From positions 1 to 29,277 of the forward strand of contig CBFGIT010000031.1 in the NCBI GenBank assembly GCA_965648905.1: a stretch of 29,277 bases of DNA, in the 5' to 3' direction. The translations under genes and the position numbers were made by a program. Within the stretch, counting starts at the first letter, position 1; every line of letters begins with the position of its first letter. The notes beneath the pieces are model-generated. The model made no database searches, was not told the DNA's origin, and saw only the letters and a program-made list of their open reading frames with translations. Below are positions 1,452 through 11,043 of this stretch, one piece after another. This DNA comes from a candidate division WOR-3 bacterium (lineage in GTDB: Bacteria > Hydrothermota > Tepidihabitantia > Tepidihabitantales > Tepidihabitantaceae).

Positions 1452-1590
1452 CAGTCTTTCTTCGGATTGCCGTCCAGCGGCACCAGCAGCACCGTCTGGC
1501 GGCGCTGTGAATCTCCGCGGTGGCGACCGCCGCGGGCAGGTACTCCGAAGCCGGGGAGAGGTCGGTTGCTACGAGGATTCTGCGAAACAT
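1452..1590 (-). pseudogene. Universal stress protein remnant (internally deleted/frameshifted)
   Basis: RBS plus MFRRILVATDLSPASE closely matches the N-terminus of the intact USP (MFERILVATDLSDTSE). Similarity is then lost, and a shifted frame ends RRQTVLLVPLDGNPKKD*, like a USP C-terminal strand. Confidence 0.65.
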
Positions 1591-1611
1591 GGATTTCTCC
1601 TTTGCATGATT

Positions 1612-4600
1612 TCAGTCCATAGCGGGGGCGTCGGGTTGGGCGGGAACCGACGCGGCCGGTTGTGGCGCGCCCCGGTTCTTCCTTCCGAGTACCAGCGAGT
1701 AGGCGGCAGGCATGAAGAACAGGGTTACGGCCAGCGAGTAGATGAGTCCGCCGATGACCGCGATGGCCATCGGCTTGAGCATGTCGCCGCCCTCGCCGAG
1801 GTTGAGGGCGAGCGGCACGAGTCCGAGTATTGTCGTCAACTGGGTCATCAGGATTGCCCGCAACCGGACCGGCGCGGCCCGCAGGACCGCTTCGTTCGCC
1901 GGCACTCCGGCCCGGCGATGGGACTCGGCCAGGCTGAGCAGCACCACGCCCTGCGACATGATCGCGCCCATCATCACCACCATGCCGATTTGAACCGTTG
2001 ACCCGAGCGCGCTGCCGCTCAGGGCGAGCGCGGCGAATGTGCCGGTCAGCGACAGGGGAATGCCGACGAGTATCAGCAGCGGCAGCAGCAGGGACTCAAA
2101 CTGGATGGCGAGGACGACAAAGGCAAGCAGCGCGGCAAAGGCGATTATCAGGCTCATCGTGCGCTGGTTCTCGGCCATCATCTGGGCCTGTCCGCCCATC
2201 ACGTACTCGACGCCGGGCGTCCGTTCCATCGCGGCGACCGCTGCCGCTGCACGCCCGGTGGCTTCGCCGACGCTCTTTCCCAGCCGGTCGGCACCGACGA
2301 CCACTTCCTTGACCTGGTCGGTGCGGACAATCTCCACCGGGCCGACCGAAGGCACAACCTGCGCGACGTCGCGCACGTACACCGGCCGGCCGTTCCGTTG
2401 CTTGACGACAAGCCCTTCCAGGTCGGTGCGGCTGGTCAGCCTCGATTCCGGCACGATGACCCGGATGTTGTAATAGTCGGTGCCGACGCGATACCGGCTC
2501 GCGACCGTTCCGCCGACCTGGGCGCGGAGAGCGGCGGCGAACTCGTTCACCGTGACGCCCAGAGCCGCGGCCCGGGTCCGGTCGAGCCGGCAGCGGTATT
2601 CAGGCTTGGTCATGTCCACCGCGAGCGTGACGTTGGTCAGGCCGGGAACAGTGTCGAGGGTGGCGGCAACCTGGCGGGCGAACGCATAGATGTCGCTCAT
2701 CTCCGGGCCCCGCACGCGGACCTCGACTTCCTGGGTTCCTACCTGGCGGATGCCCTTGACTTTCATCTGCGCTACCCCGATTCGGCCGCCCGGGGCCGGG
2801 ACCTTGCCGACAATCGGCCGGATGCGGTCCATGAACTGGCGGGTCGTTACCCGGCGGCGGGAGCGCGGGACAAGCTGGATATCGAGCTCGCCTTCGTTGG
2901 CGACCTCGTAGGTCGCAAGACCCCAGACCCGGCCGCCGGCCATGGCAAAAATGCTGGCGATCTCCGGCTCGTCTTTGACCGCTGCCTCAAGCCGGGAGAG
3001 AATGGAGTCGGTCGTGGCGACCGAAGCCCCGCTGGGAAGGCGGACCTTGACCATTACCCGGCCGTCATCCACCGCGGGCAGGAACTCGGAGCCGATCCGT
3101 CCTGCGAAGAAAAGCCCGACCGCGAGCAGCAGCCCGGCGATGATGACCACCGGCCAGCGGGCCCGGGCGAGCAGCCGGCCGAGCAGAGCCGCGTAGCGCT
3201 CAGTGGCTCGGCTGATGCCGTTCTCTACTGCCCGCATGAACGGGAGGGAACGGGCGTGGCGTTCAGACCGGAGCAGTCGGTCGGTGAGGAACGGCGTCCA
3301 GGTCAGGGCCACGGCAAGCGAGATGAGCACGATGCCGGCGATCACCAGTACGAGTTCCTTGAACAAGATGGCGGCGAGGCCGGGAATGAAAACGAAAGGC
3401 AGGAAGATGGCGACAAAGGTCACGGTGGAGGCGACGATGGCCGAGCCGACTTCGCTGGTGCCGCGCACGGCAAAGTCGGGCGCGGACAGCTTGCGCTGGC
3501 GGGTGATACTCTCGAGCACGACAATCGAGTTGTCGAGAATCACGCCCAGCGCGACGACCAGTCCGCCGAGTGAGAAGAGGTTCAGGGAGAATCCGGCCAG
3601 CCGCATCAGCAGGAAGCTGGCCAGCAGGGTGAGCGGCATCGCGGTTCCCATCACTACCACCGGTCGCCACTGGCCGAGGAAGAGGTAGACGATGAAGATG
3701 ACCAGTATCGCGGCGAGTATCGCGGAACTGCCGACGCTGTTGATTGCGGCCATCACGTACTCGCCCTGGTTCTCGACGTAGTTGAACGAGACGCCCTCGG
3801 GCGCCTCGGCCTCCAGTTCCGCCAGCCGGGCCGCGACTGCTTTGGAGACCGCGACCGTGTTGGCGTCGGCCTGCTTCAGGACGTTGAGCTTCACGCAGGC
3901 CCGGCCGTTGAACCGGGTGATGACCCGCGCTTCCTCGTGTGAGTCCTCGATGGTGGCGATGTCCCTGACCCGGACTTCGCGGCCGTCCGGGCCGCGGAGC
4001 ACCACGACTTCGGCCATTTCGTCAAGGGACCCGAACTCACCCGCGGTGCGGGCGATGATTTCGCGCGCGCCGACCGTGACGCGGCCCGCGAACATCTCGC
4101 GGTTCTCTTCCTGCAGCGCCTTCGCCACCGCGGCGGGCGTGAGTCCGTACGCGGCAAGGCGGCGGGCGTCGAGCAGCACCCGGATTTCGCGCTTGAGCCC
4201 GCCGACCGCTTCGACGCCGGCCGTGCCGTCAACTGCGTTGAGGCGGTCGGTTAGCCAGTTCTGCGACCAGTCGCGCAGCCAGACCAGGTCGTGCCGGTCG
4301 GAACTGACGGTGACTTCCATCACCGGCAACTGTGAAGGGTCGGCCTTGATGATGACCGGCGGGTCCATGTCGGTGGGGAGCTGGCGCGCGACCCGGCCCA
4401 TCGCGGTGGTGACGTCGGCGTAGGCGTCCTCGATGTTGACACCGTACTTGAAGTTGACGAGCAGGGTGTACATGCCCTCGATGCTCGACGATTCCAGGTA
4501 GTCGAGGTTGTCCACGGTGGCCATCACGCGCTCAATCGGTTCGGCAATCGTGGTCTCGATTTCCTCGGCCGTGGCCCCGCGATACCAGATGTGAATCTTG

Positions 4601-7047: not shown

Positions 7048-7811
7048 TCTTTGTTGGTGCAGTACAGGGCCGCGGAATAGGCGCGATTCACCGCGTCCAT
7101 CAGGCCCTTACCGGCGTCGGCGAGCGTGGCGTCCCGGTAATGCCGGGCCAGGACGAAATGGTCCACAGCCGGGGAGATGCCGCTCAACGCCCTCCGGTAG
7201 CACTGACACCGGCCGGCGTCCTTGGGATACGGGCATGGCCCGAGGAGCGCGCGGTTGCGGAGCTCCAGAACCCGAGAAACCAGCGAGTCGGCGCGGCCCG
7301 ACCCAGCCGAGTCCTTCGCCGCCGCGATGGCGTCCTTGGCGGTGCGGCGCAGGTGGTAGATCCGGTCAGCCGCATAGTCGAGTCCGTTCTCTTCATGCAT
7401 CCGGATGAACTCCGCGCAGCCTTTGCCGCACGCCTTGAATGAACCCGCGTGGTCGCCGGCGCGCAGCAGCGATTCCATCTGTCCCATGGCCTTGCCGATG
7501 CCCTCCAGCCGGTCCGCGAACCCGGCGTCGGACCCGTACTCGGCCGGCGGATTCTTCCCGTAGGTCGCGGCGACCTTCTTCCAGATGGCGCGGGCGCGAC
7601 TGAGGTGCTTCAGCGTGCTGTCGGTCAGCCTGGGCGTACCGATGGAGTCGAGTTGCTGGACCAGGGTGCAGTAGGCGCGGAGTTCCAGTCGCGCCGCGGT
7701 CACGGTGCTATCGAAACTCGAAAGCGGCGGCGGATTGGGCCCGGCCTGAGTCAGTCCGACCAGGCCGGCCAGCGCGACCGCCATCATCCCGAGGCGCGTC
7801 AGTTGTCTCAC
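7044..7811 (-). CDS. Secreted Cys-containing helical hypothetical protein
   Basis: N-terminal signal peptide; amphipathic helices with CGKGC, CPYP and CQC; 4-nt overlaps with both neighbours. Confidence 0.75.
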   Translation of the reverse strand: MRQLTRLGMMAVALAGLVGLTQAGPNPPPLSSFDSTVTAARLELRAYCTLVQQLDSIGTPRLTDSTLKHLSRARAIWKKVAATYGKNPPAEYGSDAGFADRLEGIGKAMGQMESLLRAGDHAGSFKACGKGCAEFIRMHEENGLDYAADRIYHLRRTAKDAIAAAKDSAGSGRADSLVSRVLELRNRALLGPCPYPKDAGRCQCYRRALSGISPAVDHFVLARHYRDATLADAGKGLMDAVNRAYSAALYCTNKE

Positions 7812-8050
7812 GCCTTTCCTCCGGCAAGCAGCTTCTTCAGTTCGTCCTTGGACGGGACCTTGCCCTGAGCAACGACCTTGCCGTCAATCACCAGCCCGGG
7901 CGTCATGAAGACGCCCATCGCGGCGAACTTCTTGAGGTCGGTGACGTGTTCGACTTCGGCCGCGATGTTCATCTCCGCGAGCGTGTCGCGCACGCGCTTC
8001 TCGAGTTCCTGACACCGGGCACAGCCGATTCCGAGTATCTGGACTTTCAT
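7808..8050 (-). CDS. Small redox-active disulfide protein (MTH895/ArsE-like thioredoxin), copy 2, intact
   Basis: MKVQILGIGCARC...FMTPGLVIDGKV; AAAGGAG RBS; clear paralogue of 874-1113. Confidence 0.92.
   Translation of the reverse strand: MKVQILGIGCARCQELEKRVRDTLAEMNIAAEVEHVTDLKKFAAMGVFMTPGLVIDGKVVAQGKVPSKDELKKLLAGGKA
7991..8046. repeat. 56-bp exact direct repeat, copy A (5' end of thioredoxin gene)
   Basis: cacgcgcttctcgagttcctgacaccgggcacagccgattccgagtatctggactt is identical to 9055-9110. Confidence 0.97.
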
Positions 8051-8074
8051 CTTGATCTCCTTTTCAGAATGGTA

Positions 8075-8998
8075 CTAGACATCAAACAGACGGATGAGGT
8101 ATTCAGGTCTACGTATCTCGTCAAGTGCTTTGGCGGCCTTACCCCGCGTGGCCACAAGCGGGAGTTTCCCTTTACCCGGAAGAGGTCGCCTACGAATGCG
8201 GAAGTGGGCTGCTGCAACCGCAGTACCCATGAGTTCGGCAGAGCACCTCTGCACGCCGTGACGTTGCCAATATGCGCTCGGATCCTCGTGGACCGCCGAC
8301 ACGGCGATGCGTGCCGACCCCCGCCAGAGGGCGCGCCATTTCTCAGTCAGCCGCCGCAGTTGGGCTGCGTCGGGTTCCACCGGGTGTTCTGAGTCATGCG
8401 GCAGCAAACGAGGTATGAGTCTGGATCGTTTCAGAACATCTTCGTATGGGCGCACACCGTACATGTCATAGCACGCGCAGAGCAGGGCTAGTCCGCTTGG
8501 GAGACGAACCAGCCGATGGCTGTCCGAGAAGTCGTCCTCGCAGGAGTACCAGACAGGGTTTTGCCGTGGGCCCGGGTTCTGTGGAGGCGGGAACACCTTT
8601 CTACCTAGTCCCTTGACTCCCTTGGCATCCCAAGCTACACAAAACTCGTCTCCCCTCCAATGCTCAGTTCCACGTGCGTCGACGCCAGCGATTATCAGCG
8701 GTTGTACGGGCCGTCCGCGCTTCGCCAGCATCGTGCACGCCCGCATACAGTCGTCGGAGTAGTCCGTGACAACGATCTTTGCCATTCGTGTTTCTGTGTC
8801 GAGGAGACCCAGATGCTCCGGATGACGGAAGTACCCGCCCGGCAGCACGACGCAATCCAGGCTGTCCCATCCGTGTTCCTTGATGTCGAGGGCTATCGCT
8901 AGCAGCAGGCCCGAGCGGTACTGATTCGTGGAAGCGGACTTGGCCTTCGACCCCACTACGCAGACGGTGACAATCCGTCCGTCGTTTCTTGTACTCAC
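8075..8998 (-). CDS. Hypothetical protein with carbon-nitrogen hydrolase (nitrilase)-like motifs
   Basis: DCVVLPGGYF, GRKVFP and LLCACYDMYG line up with the nitrilase P-E / R-K / C-Y-D blocks. GGAGGT RBS favours GTG at 8998 over ATG 9013. Looks less GC-rich than the flanks by eye. Confidence 0.6.
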   Translation of the reverse strand: MSTRNDGRIVTVCVVGSKAKSASTNQYRSGLLLAIALDIKEHGWDSLDCVVLPGGYFRHPEHLGLLDTETRMAKIVVTDYSDDCMRACTMLAKRGRPVQPLIIAGVDARGTEHWRGDEFCVAWDAKGVKGLGRKVFPPPQNPGPRQNPVWYSCEDDFSDSHRLVRLPSGLALLCACYDMYGVRPYEDVLKRSRLIPRLLPHDSEHPVEPDAAQLRRLTEKWRALWRGSARIAVSAVHEDPSAYWQRHGVQRCSAELMGTAVAAAHFRIRRRPLPGKGKLPLVATRGKAAKALDEIRRPEYLIRLFDV

Positions 8999-9054
8999 GC
9001 TGATACCTCCCATGGCCGGGATTTCGCGATCACGCTGCTACGCTACGACTCCAT

Positions 9055-9110
9055 CACGCGCTTCTCGAGTTCCTGACACCGGGCACAGCCGATTCCGAGT
9101 ATCTGGACTT
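9055..9110. repeat. 56-bp exact direct repeat, copy B
   Basis: Identical to 7991-8046; abuts the intron 3' end. Confidence 0.97.
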
Positions 9111-11003
9111 GTCGAGTAGAAATCATTTCTTACCTCCCCTGGGTCATAGATTCCCCTCACAGAACCGAACGTGACCATTTCGGTCATTCGGCTCTTCATG
9201 AACACTTCCGCTAAGGAGGGGGTAACGCCGATATATCTTCGGTCGGGGAAGCGGATGATACTCCAGCCAGCGCTTGAACCGCTGCCAGTCGTAGCTCCGA
9301 AGCTGGCTCCGCCGATTCAGCCACTTGTACGCCAGCCCAACCACGTGCCGGTAGAAGCTCTGCACGCTCCGTAGATTCCCGCCTATCCCATAGTAACGAT
9401 AGTATCCCGTGACTTTCGCCGCCAGCAGCGACCACCAGTCGGCAAGCTTCATCTGATTCCGTATGCTCCTGAGCCAGTCGTTCATCTGTCCCAGTGCCCG
9501 TCGTAGTCGCTTCCGCTCTGTCTTGCGCCCCAGCTTGAAGCCGCCCGTTCGCGTCTGTTCGCAGTAGTGCGTGAACCCTAAGAAGTCGAAGGTTGCCAGT
9601 CGCTTCGCTTGTCGCCTTGCCGCTGCCCATTGGTAGCGCCCGAACTCGATTACCCGGCTCTTGGTCTCAGCCAAACGCAGCCCGAACTTTCCCAGCCGTT
9701 CCGCGAGATTTCCCATGAAACGCCGGGCCTCTTGCCCACTCTGCACGCAGACCACAAAGTCGTCCGCATACCGCGTCAGGTGGGCATAGCCTCTCGTCTG
9801 CCGCTTGACCTTGCGCTCAAACCATAAGTCGAGTACATAGTGCAGGTAGATGTTTGCCAGCACCGGACTCAGTACGCTGCCTTGGGGTGTGCCCGCGGTC
9901 GTGGCACTCTTCCGACCTTCAGTCACTACGCCCGCCGTCAGAAATCGCGCTATCAGTCGTAGAAAGGCACTGTCGGTAATGCGCTGCTCTAAACAACGCA
10001 TCATCCATTCGTGATTCACCGTGTCGAAGAACCGCTCGATGTCCGCATCCACGACGTAGTTGACCGGTCGCGTCATGATTGTCCGGTCGAGCGCGTCTAA
10101 GGCATCGTGTGCCCCACGCCCTGACCGGAATCCGTAGGATACCTCCAGAAAGTCAACCGCAAAGACCGCCTCCAGTATCAGCTTGCAGGCCATCTGCACT
10201 ATCTTGTCCTCTACCGCCGGTATGCCCAATGGCCTTCGGTCGCCATTCGGCTTCGGGATGTATACCCGCCGGGGCGGTCGCGGACGATACTGCCGAGCCT
10301 TCAGCCGCCGGACCAAGTCCTTGAGATTGACCACCAGATTCGCTTCGTAGTCCTCAACCGTTACCGCATCTATGCCCGGGGCCTTGTTACGCTTCAGCTC
10401 CCCGAAGCACGCCCGTAGGAAGTCATCAGTAAGCAGGTGCATTAGTGCACAGAATCGGCTTTGAGGATTCTTGCTGGCCCTTAGAGTAAGGGACTTGAGT
10501 CTTGTTGAGAACCGTGCTCCGGTTCTGAGTCCGGCAGTTCTGTCCCTCAAGTCCCGTCGCATTCCTGTAGGCCCCTTCGCTCCACCCGCGTTAACGGGCT
10601 TCGTCGCTACTATGGGCCTATCCGACTCCCATAACGCCGTCTGGGCCGCCTTGTCTTTCCGGGACTTGGCCGCCCATACTCTGCTGAGAGCGTCATGGGT
10701 CTCCCGAGTTCCTGGCCTATCCGTATGATACCTCGCCACGGTCTCAGACCCCGCCAGTCTCGCCGCTCCTTGCCTGACGGTGCGGAGAGTATTGCCTGCG
10801 GCTTTATGAACAGCATCGGCAACTGGGATGACAGGAATTACGGGGCTCAATCCCTTCACTTGCGTTGTGGCTCGGTAACTCGTTTCCGCTGGCTTCATAG
10901 CTTCGGTTACCCTGACTATGCAGCGTTCACTATTGAGGTGGCTGCCAACCTTCCTCAAGCCGGACTCTCACCGGCTGGACAAACCAGACTTTTCTCGGCG
11001 CAC
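9111..11003 (-). mobile_element. Group II intron (IIB-like, probably bacterial class E), 1,893 nt, apparently complete
   Basis: 5' end GTGCG at 11003; domain V GAGCCGAATGACCGAAATGGTCACGTTCGGTTC (9194-9162); domain VI with bulged A at -7 (9117); 3' end ...CTCGAC at 9111; removal restores ATG AAA GTC CAG. Confidence 0.95.
9144..10562 (-). CDS. ltrA: Group II intron reverse transcriptase/maturase (no HNH endonuclease domain)
   Basis: KAPGID, RPLGIP, SYGFR, DADIERFFD, GTPQGSVLSPVLANIYLH, RYADD, FDFLGFTHYC, then the X domain. ATG 10562 follows the DIII-like segment; the start is uncertain (track gives 10958). Confidence 0.93.
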   Translation of the reverse strand: MRRDLRDRTAGLRTGARFSTRLKSLTLRASKNPQSRFCALMHLLTDDFLRACFGELKRNKAPGIDAVTVEDYEANLVVNLKDLVRRLKARQYRPRPPRRVYIPKPNGDRRPLGIPAVEDKIVQMACKLILEAVFAVDFLEVSYGFRSGRGAHDALDALDRTIMTRPVNYVVDADIERFFDTVNHEWMMRCLEQRITDSAFLRLIARFLTAGVVTEGRKSATTAGTPQGSVLSPVLANIYLHYVLDLWFERKVKRQTRGYAHLTRYADDFVVCVQSGQEARRFMGNLAERLGKFGLRLAETKSRVIEFGRYQWAAARRQAKRLATFDFLGFTHYCEQTRTGGFKLGRKTERKRLRRALGQMNDWLRSIRNQMKLADWWSLLAAKVTGYYRYYGIGGNLRSVQSFYRHVVGLAYKWLNRRSQLRSYDWQRFKRWLEYHPLPRPKIYRRYPLLSGSVHEEPNDRNGHVRFCEGNL

Positions 11004-11043
11004 TCATCGCATCCTCCTGCTTTGGGTTGATTCGCTTTCCATG

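Follow-up and report, generated by a model that had tools for sequence, protein, structure and literature searches.

Target choice in bacterial group II introns

Group IIC introns have a short EBS1 and no EBS2; recognising a DNA hairpin, they insert behind terminators or attC sites, outside genes. RmInt1 of Sinorhizobium meliloti, a class D intron, is endonuclease-less and has its specific homing site within an insertion sequence. Bacterial introns of classes E and F were reportedly treated by Toro in 2002 and Simon in 2008. The part of a 2015 review drawn on here assigns three target specificities to bacterial group II introns, namely homing sites, terminators and attC sites (PMC4424553). For class E/F, the passages of PMC3753933 used here give a 5-nt domain V loop as a hallmark and describe examples whose homing sites are ordinary and whose IBS2 immediately precedes IBS1; these passages mention neither a start-codon habit nor a ribosome-binding site in domain VI. 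The nearest precedent is the IIB1 clade (Michel et al. 2007), which is distinct and carries an endonuclease: its introns are found in or adjoining start or stop codons of protein genes, by a route that the corresponding part of PMC12584367 states to be unknown. The literature covered, which extended neither to Michel 2007 nor to Simon 2008 (both may bear on these points), describes no endonuclease-less lineage at SD/ATG sites and no SD-AUG in domain VI.

The intron studied here lies in a stretch of 29,277 nucleotides (the window) of contig CBFGIT010000031.1, from a candidate division WOR-3 bacterium. It is an intact IIB-like group II intron, devoid of an endonuclease domain, and from sequence comparison we consider it likely to come from a lineage that has specialised in translation initiation regions. 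It shares with the IIB1 clade the insertion at an initiation codon (ATGA^intron, the caret marking the insertion point). The IIB1 introns encode a CL1-type reverse transcriptase with a C-terminal endonuclease domain, unlike the window intron, whose lineage is further distinguished by diverse hosts, a site one base past the start codon and a Shine-Dalgarno sequence (SD) and AUG in domain VI. Like group IIC introns it appears to aim at a generic, recurring genomic signal with a short EBS1, but it keeps an EBS2 cognate to the exon and inserts inside gene starts; its 5' exon in the window is an SD and a start codon, with no hairpin of the group IIC kind. RmInt1 likewise has an endonuclease-less IEP, its specific insertion-sequence site differing from the many gene starts occupied by this lineage. 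The likeness to class E/F comprises the 5-nt domain V loop and the IEP without endonuclease domain, both looked for and found, together with a small IIB-like ribozyme whose EBS1 occupies a terminal loop and whose EBS2 an internal loop of domain Id; IBS2, unlike in the class E/F examples, is set apart from IBS1. Class E/F features are present, the label "class E" itself being a guess of the original prediction.

The intron and its encoded protein

11003..9111, minus strand: complete group II intron of 1893 nt, starting GTGCG and ending ...CTACTCGAC
9147..10562, minus strand: IEP, a reverse transcriptase/maturase of 472 aa with YADD and without endonuclease domain
9163..9196, minus strand: domain V, from the RF00029 alignment, with the 5-nt terminal loop GAAAU
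9111..9159, minus strand: domain VI, folded, with a bulged branch A at 9117 and the 3' end ...GAC

The element is a group II intron composed of ribozyme and IEP, all three features by which membership was judged being present. Its 5' exon, GCAGGAGGATGCGATGA (11020-11004, minus strand), is followed directly by GTGCG at 11003. Rfam RF02005 matches 10968-10739 with 117.4 bits (gathering score 49), which gives the domain I-IV fold behind the 5' GUGYG, and RF00029 matches 9196-9111 with 55.1 bits (cut-off 40). Ahead of the IEP start the ribozyme measures 441 nt in all, and the match to the Rfam domain I model sets in at intron nt 36; some relatives have an insertion of 25-80 nt ahead of the model start. 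The tip of domain V reads GACC-GAAAU-GGUC here and GG-GAAAU-CC in relatives. Exon joining in silico yields ATG AAA GTC..., that is MKVQILGIGCARCQ. The IEP matches the profile TIGR04416 with 359 bits (cut-off 300). A Pfam search finds RVT_1 (E = 3.4e-36) and no endonuclease domain; the protein terminates shortly past the maturase region, with its stop codon (9146-9144) inside domain VI. By analogy, priming by such an endonuclease-less IEP probably depends on the replication fork.

Pairing of the intron with its 5' exon

10801..10814, minus strand: EBS1 hairpin GCU-GUUCAUAA-AGC, assigned from the Rfam structure, helix covariation and EBS1-exon covariation
10809-10806, minus strand: EBS1 core UCAU in the terminal loop of the hairpin, complementary to AUGA
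11004..11007, minus strand: IBS1 ATGA, the start codon and base 1 of codon 2 of an ArsE-type thioredoxin-like gene
10831..10837, minus strand: EBS2 UUCCUGU, in the internal loop flanked by helices d' (GAGCCCCG) and d'' (CCAGU)
11014..11020, minus strand: IBS2 GCAGGAG, positions -17..-11, overlapping the SD of the host gene

The intron is inserted between bases 1 and 2 of codon 2. A hairpin GCT-GTTCATAA-AGC at 10814-10801, displaying TCAT at 10809-10806, had been proposed by eye to carry an EBS1 UCAU facing ATGA. Its coordinates are confirmed, RF02005 models a hairpin at this place, and the assignment is right, backed by covariation with the exons: the anchored pairing reaches 4 bp or more in 58 of 65 introns, with a mean of 5.5 versus 4.0 for permuted exons (p = 2e-4, overstated like the other p-values given here as related sequences are not independent). 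Matched EBS1 and exon sequences are GUGG and CCAC (L027), CUUGA and UCAAG (L079), UCUUUA and UAAAGA (L012), and UGUCCC and GGGACA (L291); relatives inserted at non-start sites have an EBS1 changed to match. The 4-bp pairing in the window is the weakest of the ATGA group and unremarkable taken alone. The helices flanking the EBS1 and EBS2 loops show compensatory changes across 25 relatives, with 91.8% of cells paired and a covariation score reached by 0 of 500 shuffles. RNAalifold recovered the EBS1 hairpin unaided and missed d'/d'', which were entered by hand and then tested. A covariation-supported hairpin (helix 5) comes after EBS1. A column covarying with exon +1, as expected of EBS3/delta, was sought beside EBS1 and to either side of helix d', where no consistent partner was seen; exon +1 is A in 19 of 24 cases, which may simply reflect a common Lys codon.

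For EBS2, the segment TTCCTGTCATCC (10837-10826) had been read in two ways, as pairing with the SD CAGGAG or through CAUCC with GGAUG. RF02005 makes 10840-10827 the unpaired 5' strand of an internal loop. The SD pairing stands, extended to GCAGGAG:UUCCUGU, and fits the EBS2 position in relatives: the window EBS2 aligns with UUGAC (L012, L079), UCACC (L054) and UACCUCA (L042), all of which pair with the exons of their respective introns. CAUCC:GGAUG is rejected by homology, as its bases belong to a conserved CANC motif and to the beginning of the helix that follows. The retained 7-bp helix (-9.2 kcal/mol) lies 6 nt upstream of IBS1 rather than adjoining it; the energy of the host gene SD against ACCUCCUUA is -10.3. 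As many as 596 of the 18,791 ATGA sites of the same genome (~3%) pair with the window EBS2 loop as well or better, and 221 of these precede an open frame of at least 60 codons. Since hundreds of sites pair equally well, base pairing alone cannot explain start-codon specificity, and since the window has an EBS1 of 4 bp and an EBS2 match common to ~3% of ATGA sites, significance comes from the relatives and not from this copy.

Across the lineage, EBS2 pairs better with the cognate exon than with permuted ones (-5.1 versus -4.2 kcal/mol; p 0.002 for 37 introns and 0.008 for 31 distinct loops). Strong pairings overlapping the SD reach 8 bp in L042, 7 bp in L008 and L046, and 6 bp in L052, L054 and L056. 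The proposal that the intron reads the SD as a generic signal through EBS2 holds for some members, the window intron included, but not for all: L009, L015, L016, L062 and L215 have strong SDs with which EBS2 does not pair, and across the lineage the loop does not exceed shuffles as a generic anti-SD mimic (p 0.15-0.4).

Insertion sites in relatives

Among bacterial relatives, 38 of 43 are inserted after a start codon, 35 as NTGR^ and 3 as NTG^, compared to 0 and 6, respectively, at 65 control junctions of other group II introns with the same 5' motif. The mean SD pairing energy is -9.3 kcal/mol in the lineage versus -2.6 in controls; values of -6 kcal/mol or below are found at 32 of the 38 lineage sites, 6% of controls and 12.5% of ATGA sites of the window genome (sample of 6,000 sites). 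Spliced exons stay open for at least 42 codons or to the locus end at 17 of 21 informative sites, many of them encoding MK... signal peptides. The host genes are unrelated (signal-peptide proteins, an SDR-like protein, a TusA-like protein and others) and the carriers come from many phyla. In a quick tree, start-site members occur across the backbone and departures form 5 groups. Genome G272 has exactly four copies, 99.8-99.95% identical, with unrelated flanks and at four different gene starts; all follow SD-N6-8-ATGA, and three of the four targets contain UGGAGG, the exact complement of the EBS2 loop UCUCCA.

Tabulating the sites of relatives, a check that the original prediction had suggested, gives mostly start codons with strong SDs and genuine downstream N-termini. 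The central proposal that the intron targets translation starts (SD...ATGA) is borne out by the 38 of 43 junctions, the SD energies and the four G272 copies. The accompanying remark that arsP, arsM and the intact thioredoxin-like gene also begin ATGAA is correct, though it is not evidence of targeting.

A putative ribosome-binding site and AUG in domain VI

9137-9133, minus strand: GGAGG in the distal loop of domain VI
9126-9124, minus strand: ATG, 16 nt ahead of the 3' splice site and in the exon frame (MISTRQ-VQIL...)

Members of the lineage have GGAGG in the domain VI loop and an AUG 13 or 16 nt ahead of the 3' splice site, in the phase of the insertion. Of 52 domain VI rows from loci found by protein similarity, 48 have an ATG at a distance of 13, 16 or 19 nt from that site, always in phase 1, and a phase-1 ATG at that position occurs in 0 of 23 control introns. 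The combination of an SD with an open in-phase AUG is found in 23 of 26 bacterial start-site introns versus 1 of 6 at other sites. A metagenome scan with the 14-nt domain VI tail gave 120 matches, of which 19 passed a domain V filter that lost some true introns with a long domain VI, and 6 loci with a 5' end; its domain VI rows are biased by the search pattern and are excluded from this evidence.

Probable targeting of translation starts and its alternatives

On balance we lean to the view that this lineage, present in many phyla, inserts one base past the start codons of arbitrary genes, EBS1 pairing with AUGA and, in many members, EBS2 with the SD. The RNP would pick start sites by EBS1 and a flexible pairing of EBS2 with the SD or the spacer, probably with additional help. 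The portable SD and in-frame AUG of domain VI would replace the lost start, so that even unspliced RNA could yield the product of the downstream gene, lengthened by MSTR or MISTR and altered at residue 2; the host gene would no longer be splicing-dependent and start codons would thereby become a low-cost harbour for the intron. The same pairings could cover the SD and AUG of the host and protect the ribozyme, stopping ribosomes from running into it.

A similar distribution could arise by selection instead of targeting, if the intron recognised little beyond AUGA, inserted widely and persisted only at true start codons, where its domain VI SD and AUG keep the gene expressed, the SD association being a by-product. 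This agrees with the short EBS1 (4-6 bp), with several members lacking EBS2-SD pairing and a generic anti-SD likeness that is not significant, with the hundreds of non-start sites of the window genome that pair equally well and with L044, which sits on a real start without SD. It is nevertheless unlikely, given that all four very recent G272 copies (at least 99.8% identical) are at starts and that no copy turned up at intergenic ATGA sites away from starts, where it ought to be harmless; the advantage of cognate over permuted EBS2 pairing and the exact EBS2 complement in three of four G272 targets also speak against it.

Starts could be recognised by means other than EBS2, the pairing seen here being incidental: the IEP could supply the specificity, as could a further RNA element or some property of initiation regions (open DNA, or the coupling of transcription to translation). 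Such a scheme would accommodate the variable spacing between SD and ATGA (6-8 nt in G272), a window pairing no better than the top 3% of genomic ATGA sites and the dispensability of EBS2-IBS2 for in vitro self-splicing of class E/F introns, as given in the part of PMC3753933 used here. We give it little credence because of the cognate-versus-permuted signal, the EBS2 helices of 6-8 bp overlapping the SD in L042, L008, L046, L052, L054 and L056, and a domain I alignment in which no further conserved, single-stranded anti-SD-like motif was seen. Ordinary homing to a single specific site in the thioredoxin-like gene, with likeness among sites due to homologous targets or chance, would suit the empty homologous site of a relative (L350) and the single copy in the window genome; it is most improbable in view of the unrelated genes flanking the relatives and the four G272 copies, and of the 0 of 65 controls at NTGR^.

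If true, a lineage that seeks start sites and brings a ribosome-binding site to replace the lost one would represent a fourth target specificity, and would explain how introns live inside genes even where splicing is inefficient. Three questions become testable: by what means a short RNA guide locates real gene starts, whether domain VI can act as a translation start as well, and whether such introns rewire the translation of genes that they enter. Gene callers will begin the downstream gene at the intron AUG (MSTR...), concealing the intron, and the design could serve as an insertion tool directed to gene starts.

The interrupted gene and unoccupied sites

9043..9110, minus strand: 3' exon remnant, 23 codons in all, the frame closing at TAG 9045-9043
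7808..8050, minus strand: intact thioredoxin-like gene of the MTH895/ArsE family (TIGR00412, 98.1 bits)

The window genome has one intron copy despite its thousands of ATGA sites, which include the start of the intact paralogue, AAAGGAGATCAAGATGA^AAGTCC, an unoccupied candidate site 1 kb away. In the related genome L350 the homologous site is also unoccupied and reads, after the USP stop and an SD, acaggaggatacgATGA^AAGTCC, that is ATGA^AAGTCC. In public peat, wetland and lake runs the intron body is found at 90-99% identity only, and none of their reads spans the intron flanks. Over its first 56 nt (9110-9055) the remnant matches the start of the intact gene exactly. The intron probably entered the native start of an ArsE-type thioredoxin-like gene downstream of the USP gene; foreign DNA then cut this gene copy after 56 nt, the second, intact copy lying beyond.

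Anatomy of the intron

The minus strand of the window carries a full-length, reverse transcriptase-encoding member of a group II intron lineage. Its features, including exon-binding sites (EBS) 1 and 2, are the following.

11003 (GTGCG) to 9111 (...CTACTCGAC), minus strand: complete group II intron, 1893 nt
10968-10739, minus strand: domains I-IV (Rfam RF02005, 117.4 bits, gathering score 49)
9196-9111, minus strand: domains V/VI (Rfam RF00029, 55.1 bits, gathering score 40)
10562-9147, minus strand: reverse transcriptase/maturase, 472 aa (TIGR04416, 359 bits, cut-off 300)
11020-11004, minus strand: 5' exon end GCAGGAGGATGCGATGA
10814-10801, minus strand: EBS1 hairpin GCT-GTTCATAA-AGC
10837-10826, minus strand: EBS2-region segment TTCCTGTCATCC
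9137-9133, minus strand: GGAGG of domain VI
9126-9124, minus strand: ATG of domain VI, reading MISTRQ-VQIL... into the exon

Joining the exons gives ATG AAA GTC ..., that is MKVQILGIGCARCQ..., the N-terminus of a MTH895/ArsE-family thioredoxin-like protein. The intron-encoded protein (IEP) matches Pfam in its reverse transcriptase domain alone and is thus without an endonuclease domain, none being found in that search. The domain V loop, GAAAU, has 5 nt, a length that PMC3753933 treats as typical of class E and class F introns. The IEP frame crosses domain V and its stop codon lies within domain VI (9144-9200), unlike L005 and similar related loci where the stop is upstream of domain V.

Insertion at translation starts

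A scan guided by the protein, with each species represented by one genome, found 79 related loci (L numbers) with 40-63% IEP identity to the window. The carriers are MAGs labelled as many phyla (Omnitrophota, Aerophobetes, Planctomycetia, Actinomycetota, Nitrospirae, Elusimicrobia, delta-proteobacteria and others). Where 5' ends were located with a profile and the motif GUGYG, 35 of 43 bacterial-group introns follow a start codon plus purine (NTGR), three follow NTG directly and five have other junctions (L003, L012, L243, L069, L050). Counted apart are the distant L051 and L055 and the later find L291, all away from starts, and an archaeal-type clade of about 22 junctions. This clade (L018-L038, L057-L061, L072, L077, L078, L080), mostly from Methanoperedens/ANME-type archaeal MAGs, begins with GCGYG or GAGYG in place of GUGYG and sits after ...CACAG or ...CACGG, not at start codons; in its member L019 a second copy begins 10 nt into the 3' exon, a tandem insertion. 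In the control set, group II introns from viral contigs that have the 5' motif GTGYGCCGAGNAAAGC but belong elsewhere, 0 of 65 distinct junctions are NTGR and 6 are NTG.

Shine-Dalgarno (SD) strength, as pairing energy of the 18 upstream nt with the 16S tail motif
Lineage start sites (n=38): mean -9.3 kcal/mol; <= -6 in 84% (32/38)
Control introns (n=65): mean -2.6 kcal/mol; <= -6 in 6%
ATGA sites of the window's genome (6,000 sampled of 18,814): mean not compared; <= -6 in 12.5%

The frame stays open for at least 42 codons or to the locus end in 17 of 21 informative spliced sites. Among the spliced N-termini there are many signal peptides of the form MK..., an SDR-like one (MKKDLKGKVAIITGAS) and a TusA-like one; four spliced frames are short (9 codons in L014, 29 in L027, 3 in L070, 23 in the window). 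From these sequences we read the spliced exons as real gene starts. The original prediction, that the target is a generic SD...ATGA start signal, is supported by these junctions, strong SDs and N-termini; the observation behind it is confirmed, all its coordinates being correct on re-reading of the minus strand.

Tabulating all copies of one genome, a check named with the original prediction, agrees with this target. Genome G272, the carrier of L004, has exactly four, 99.8-99.95% identical and with unrelated flanks, all preceded by GGAGG-N6-8-ATGA. In the window's genome the intron occurs once, and of the 272 genomes from this phylum just two more have a relative. The G218 relative (IEP identity 84%) is truncated at its 5' end by the edge of the contig, and its 3' exon would read as a signal peptide, provided ATGA precedes; that of G214 (69%) is inserted after ...TGTCCC. 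Contigs of peat, wetland and lake sequencing runs (X1, X4, X8, X15) match the window intron at 90-99% and none of its flanks, and one follows the window up to 11008 (GATGA) before departing, the pattern that insertion at a different start would give. In L053 (about 1500-3400) and L056 the IEP gene is itself split by a second, unrelated group II intron (twintron).

The interrupted thioredoxin-like gene

In the same-family genome locus L350, the USP stop is followed by ...acaggaggatacgATGA joined to AAGTCCAGG..., the empty form of the window site, indicating that the intron inserted into the thioredoxin-like gene at its native start. An intact copy (8050-7808) lies 1 kb away, behind a different SD (AAAGGAGATCAAGATGA before AAGTCC) and with its start unoccupied. 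The 3' exon matches it perfectly over 56 nt (9110-9055 = 8046-7991), a direct repeat whose one unit begins exactly at the 3' splice site and whose other unit begins at the fifth base of the intact gene. Beyond it the two diverge, so that the interrupted copy is a 23-codon stump. The approximately 1 kb between the repeats (8051-9054) has no DNA match among 43 other family genomes and includes a 312-codon ORF without Pfam or NCBIfam match. This ORF probably starts at a GTG behind GGGAGG (8999-9013), reading V-S-T-R-N; the likeness to the lineage's domain VI peptide MSTR is probably coincidental since the codons differ. The putative start, GTGA, is itself an NTGR site.

Exon-binding loops

The Rfam alignment places 10814-10801 in a hairpin and 10840-10827 in an unpaired internal-loop strand between helices GAGCCCCG/CGGGGUC and CCAGU/ACUGG. 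In 25 relatives these helices have standard pairs in 91.8% of cells and two-sided changes in 18 of 28 base pairs; none of 500 shuffles matches the covariation score, and pairing drops to 34-51% when partners are slid out of register. Both candidate exon-binding sites therefore sit in real loops.

EBS1 pairing with the end of the exon, counted from -1, reaches at least 4 bp in 58 of 65 introns and averages 5.5 bp, versus 4.0 bp with permuted exons (p = 2e-4). The strongest support comes from the exceptional introns because their EBS1 changed to match the exon.

Exon ends and EBS1 loops of the exceptional introns
L027: GAGUGG (GUG start); loop CCACUC
L079: CUUGA (UUG start); loop UCAAG
L012: UCUUUA; loop UAAAGA
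L065: CUCUUAUG; loop CAUAAGAG
L291: UGUCCC; loop GGGACA
Archaeal clade: ACACAG; loop CUGUGU

This covariation supports the proposed pairing of UCAU with ATGA. In the window the 4-bp core UCAU:AUGA is the whole helix, the weakest within the ATGA group.

The position of EBS2 is fixed by the unusual-target members L012 and L079, which pair UUGAC:GUCAG from the aligned internal loop. There the window offers UUCCUGU to GCAGGAG at -17..-11 (7 bp, one G-U, -9.2 kcal/mol). Other strong cognate helices likewise overlie the SD: UGAGGUAU in L042 (8 bp), UGGAGGU in L008 and GGAGGAU in L046 (7 bp each), GAGGAG in L052 and GGUGAU in L054 and L056 (6 bp each). Cognate pairing is stronger than permuted pairing (-5.1 versus -4.2 kcal/mol; p 0.002 with 37 introns and 0.008 with 31 distinct loops). 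Pairing is absent in several strong-SD members (L009, L015, L016, L062, L215), and the loops are no more 16S anti-SD-like than their own shuffles (p 0.15-0.4). Of the two options first proposed, SD pairing stands; CAUCC:GGAUG is rejected since its bases belong partly to a conserved CANC motif and partly to the beginning of the following helix. The gap between the intron-binding sites IBS2 and IBS1 is 5-8 nt in the window and G272 copies and nil in L042 and L054, so spacing is flexible.

Selection of real starts

EBS1 and EBS2 as modelled cannot alone single out real starts: at 596 of 18,791 ATGA sites of the window's genome EBS2 pairs at least as well as at the true site, and only 221 of these 596 precede an open frame of at least 60 codons. 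Either a further determinant exists or selection clears the other insertions. Pure selection, removing afterwards whatever landed away from starts, appears unlikely because all four very recent G272 copies are at starts and no copy in any genome is seen at a harmless intergenic non-start ATGA. A further determinant would probably help to distinguish real starts from the remaining ATGA sites.

A putative spare start in domain VI

In 48 of 52 domain VI rows from loci found by protein similarity an ATG precedes the 3' splice site by 13, 16 or 19 nt, always in phase 1, that of insertion after ATGA. In bacterial members GGAGG precedes it at ordinary SD spacing. Such a phase-1 ATG is found in the last 22 nt of 0/23 control introns with a recognisable 3' end. 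Among bacterial introns with both ends known, 23 of 26 at start sites combine an SD (<= -8 kcal/mol) with an open in-phase AUG, versus only one of six at other sites (L003, near-start ...TTATAGA). In the predicted fold of the window's domain VI, the distal loop holds the SD and branch A (9117) stays bulged. The intron would supply a replacement for the start that it severs, and this AUG, if used for translation, would make the host gene translatable without splicing. The putative spare start is new here; none of the full texts searched, nor the papers combed for specific terms, describes an SD-AUG in domain VI.

In the archaeal-type clade the AUG persists at a distance of 16 nt, and in seven rows an in-frame TGA closes it. 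The domain VI start of the window reads GGAGG-N6-ATGA (9124-9140), versus ATGT in most relatives, and so resembles a target for the intron itself. In L003, L009, L053, L056, L193 and L215 domain VI is lengthened to about 120 nt and still ends in AAAGGAGG-N8-10-ATGTCTACTCGAC.

Lineage history and known systems

In a quick IEP tree the start-site members are scattered over the whole backbone and five changes of site type are needed (archaeal-type clade, L051/L055, L012, L003 and L291, the last being the window's nearest relative). Start-site targeting looks ancestral to the group, with ordinary retargeting several times. PMC4424553 recognises three target specificities of bacterial group II introns. 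A IIB1 clade at start/stop codons has, according to PMC12584367, a large domain I insertion and an endonuclease-bearing reverse transcriptase; the window intron has neither. An endonuclease-less lineage at SD/ATG sites is likewise absent from the full texts and papers searched.

L016, L027, L044 and L048 have an insertion at the domain I base (intron nt about 38-110), the same place as in the IIB1 clade; it is shorter in L010, L011, L012 and L079. In four introns the insertion holds its own SD-N7-ATGA and a short conserved frame (MKQLEL...), resembling a target-site mimic.
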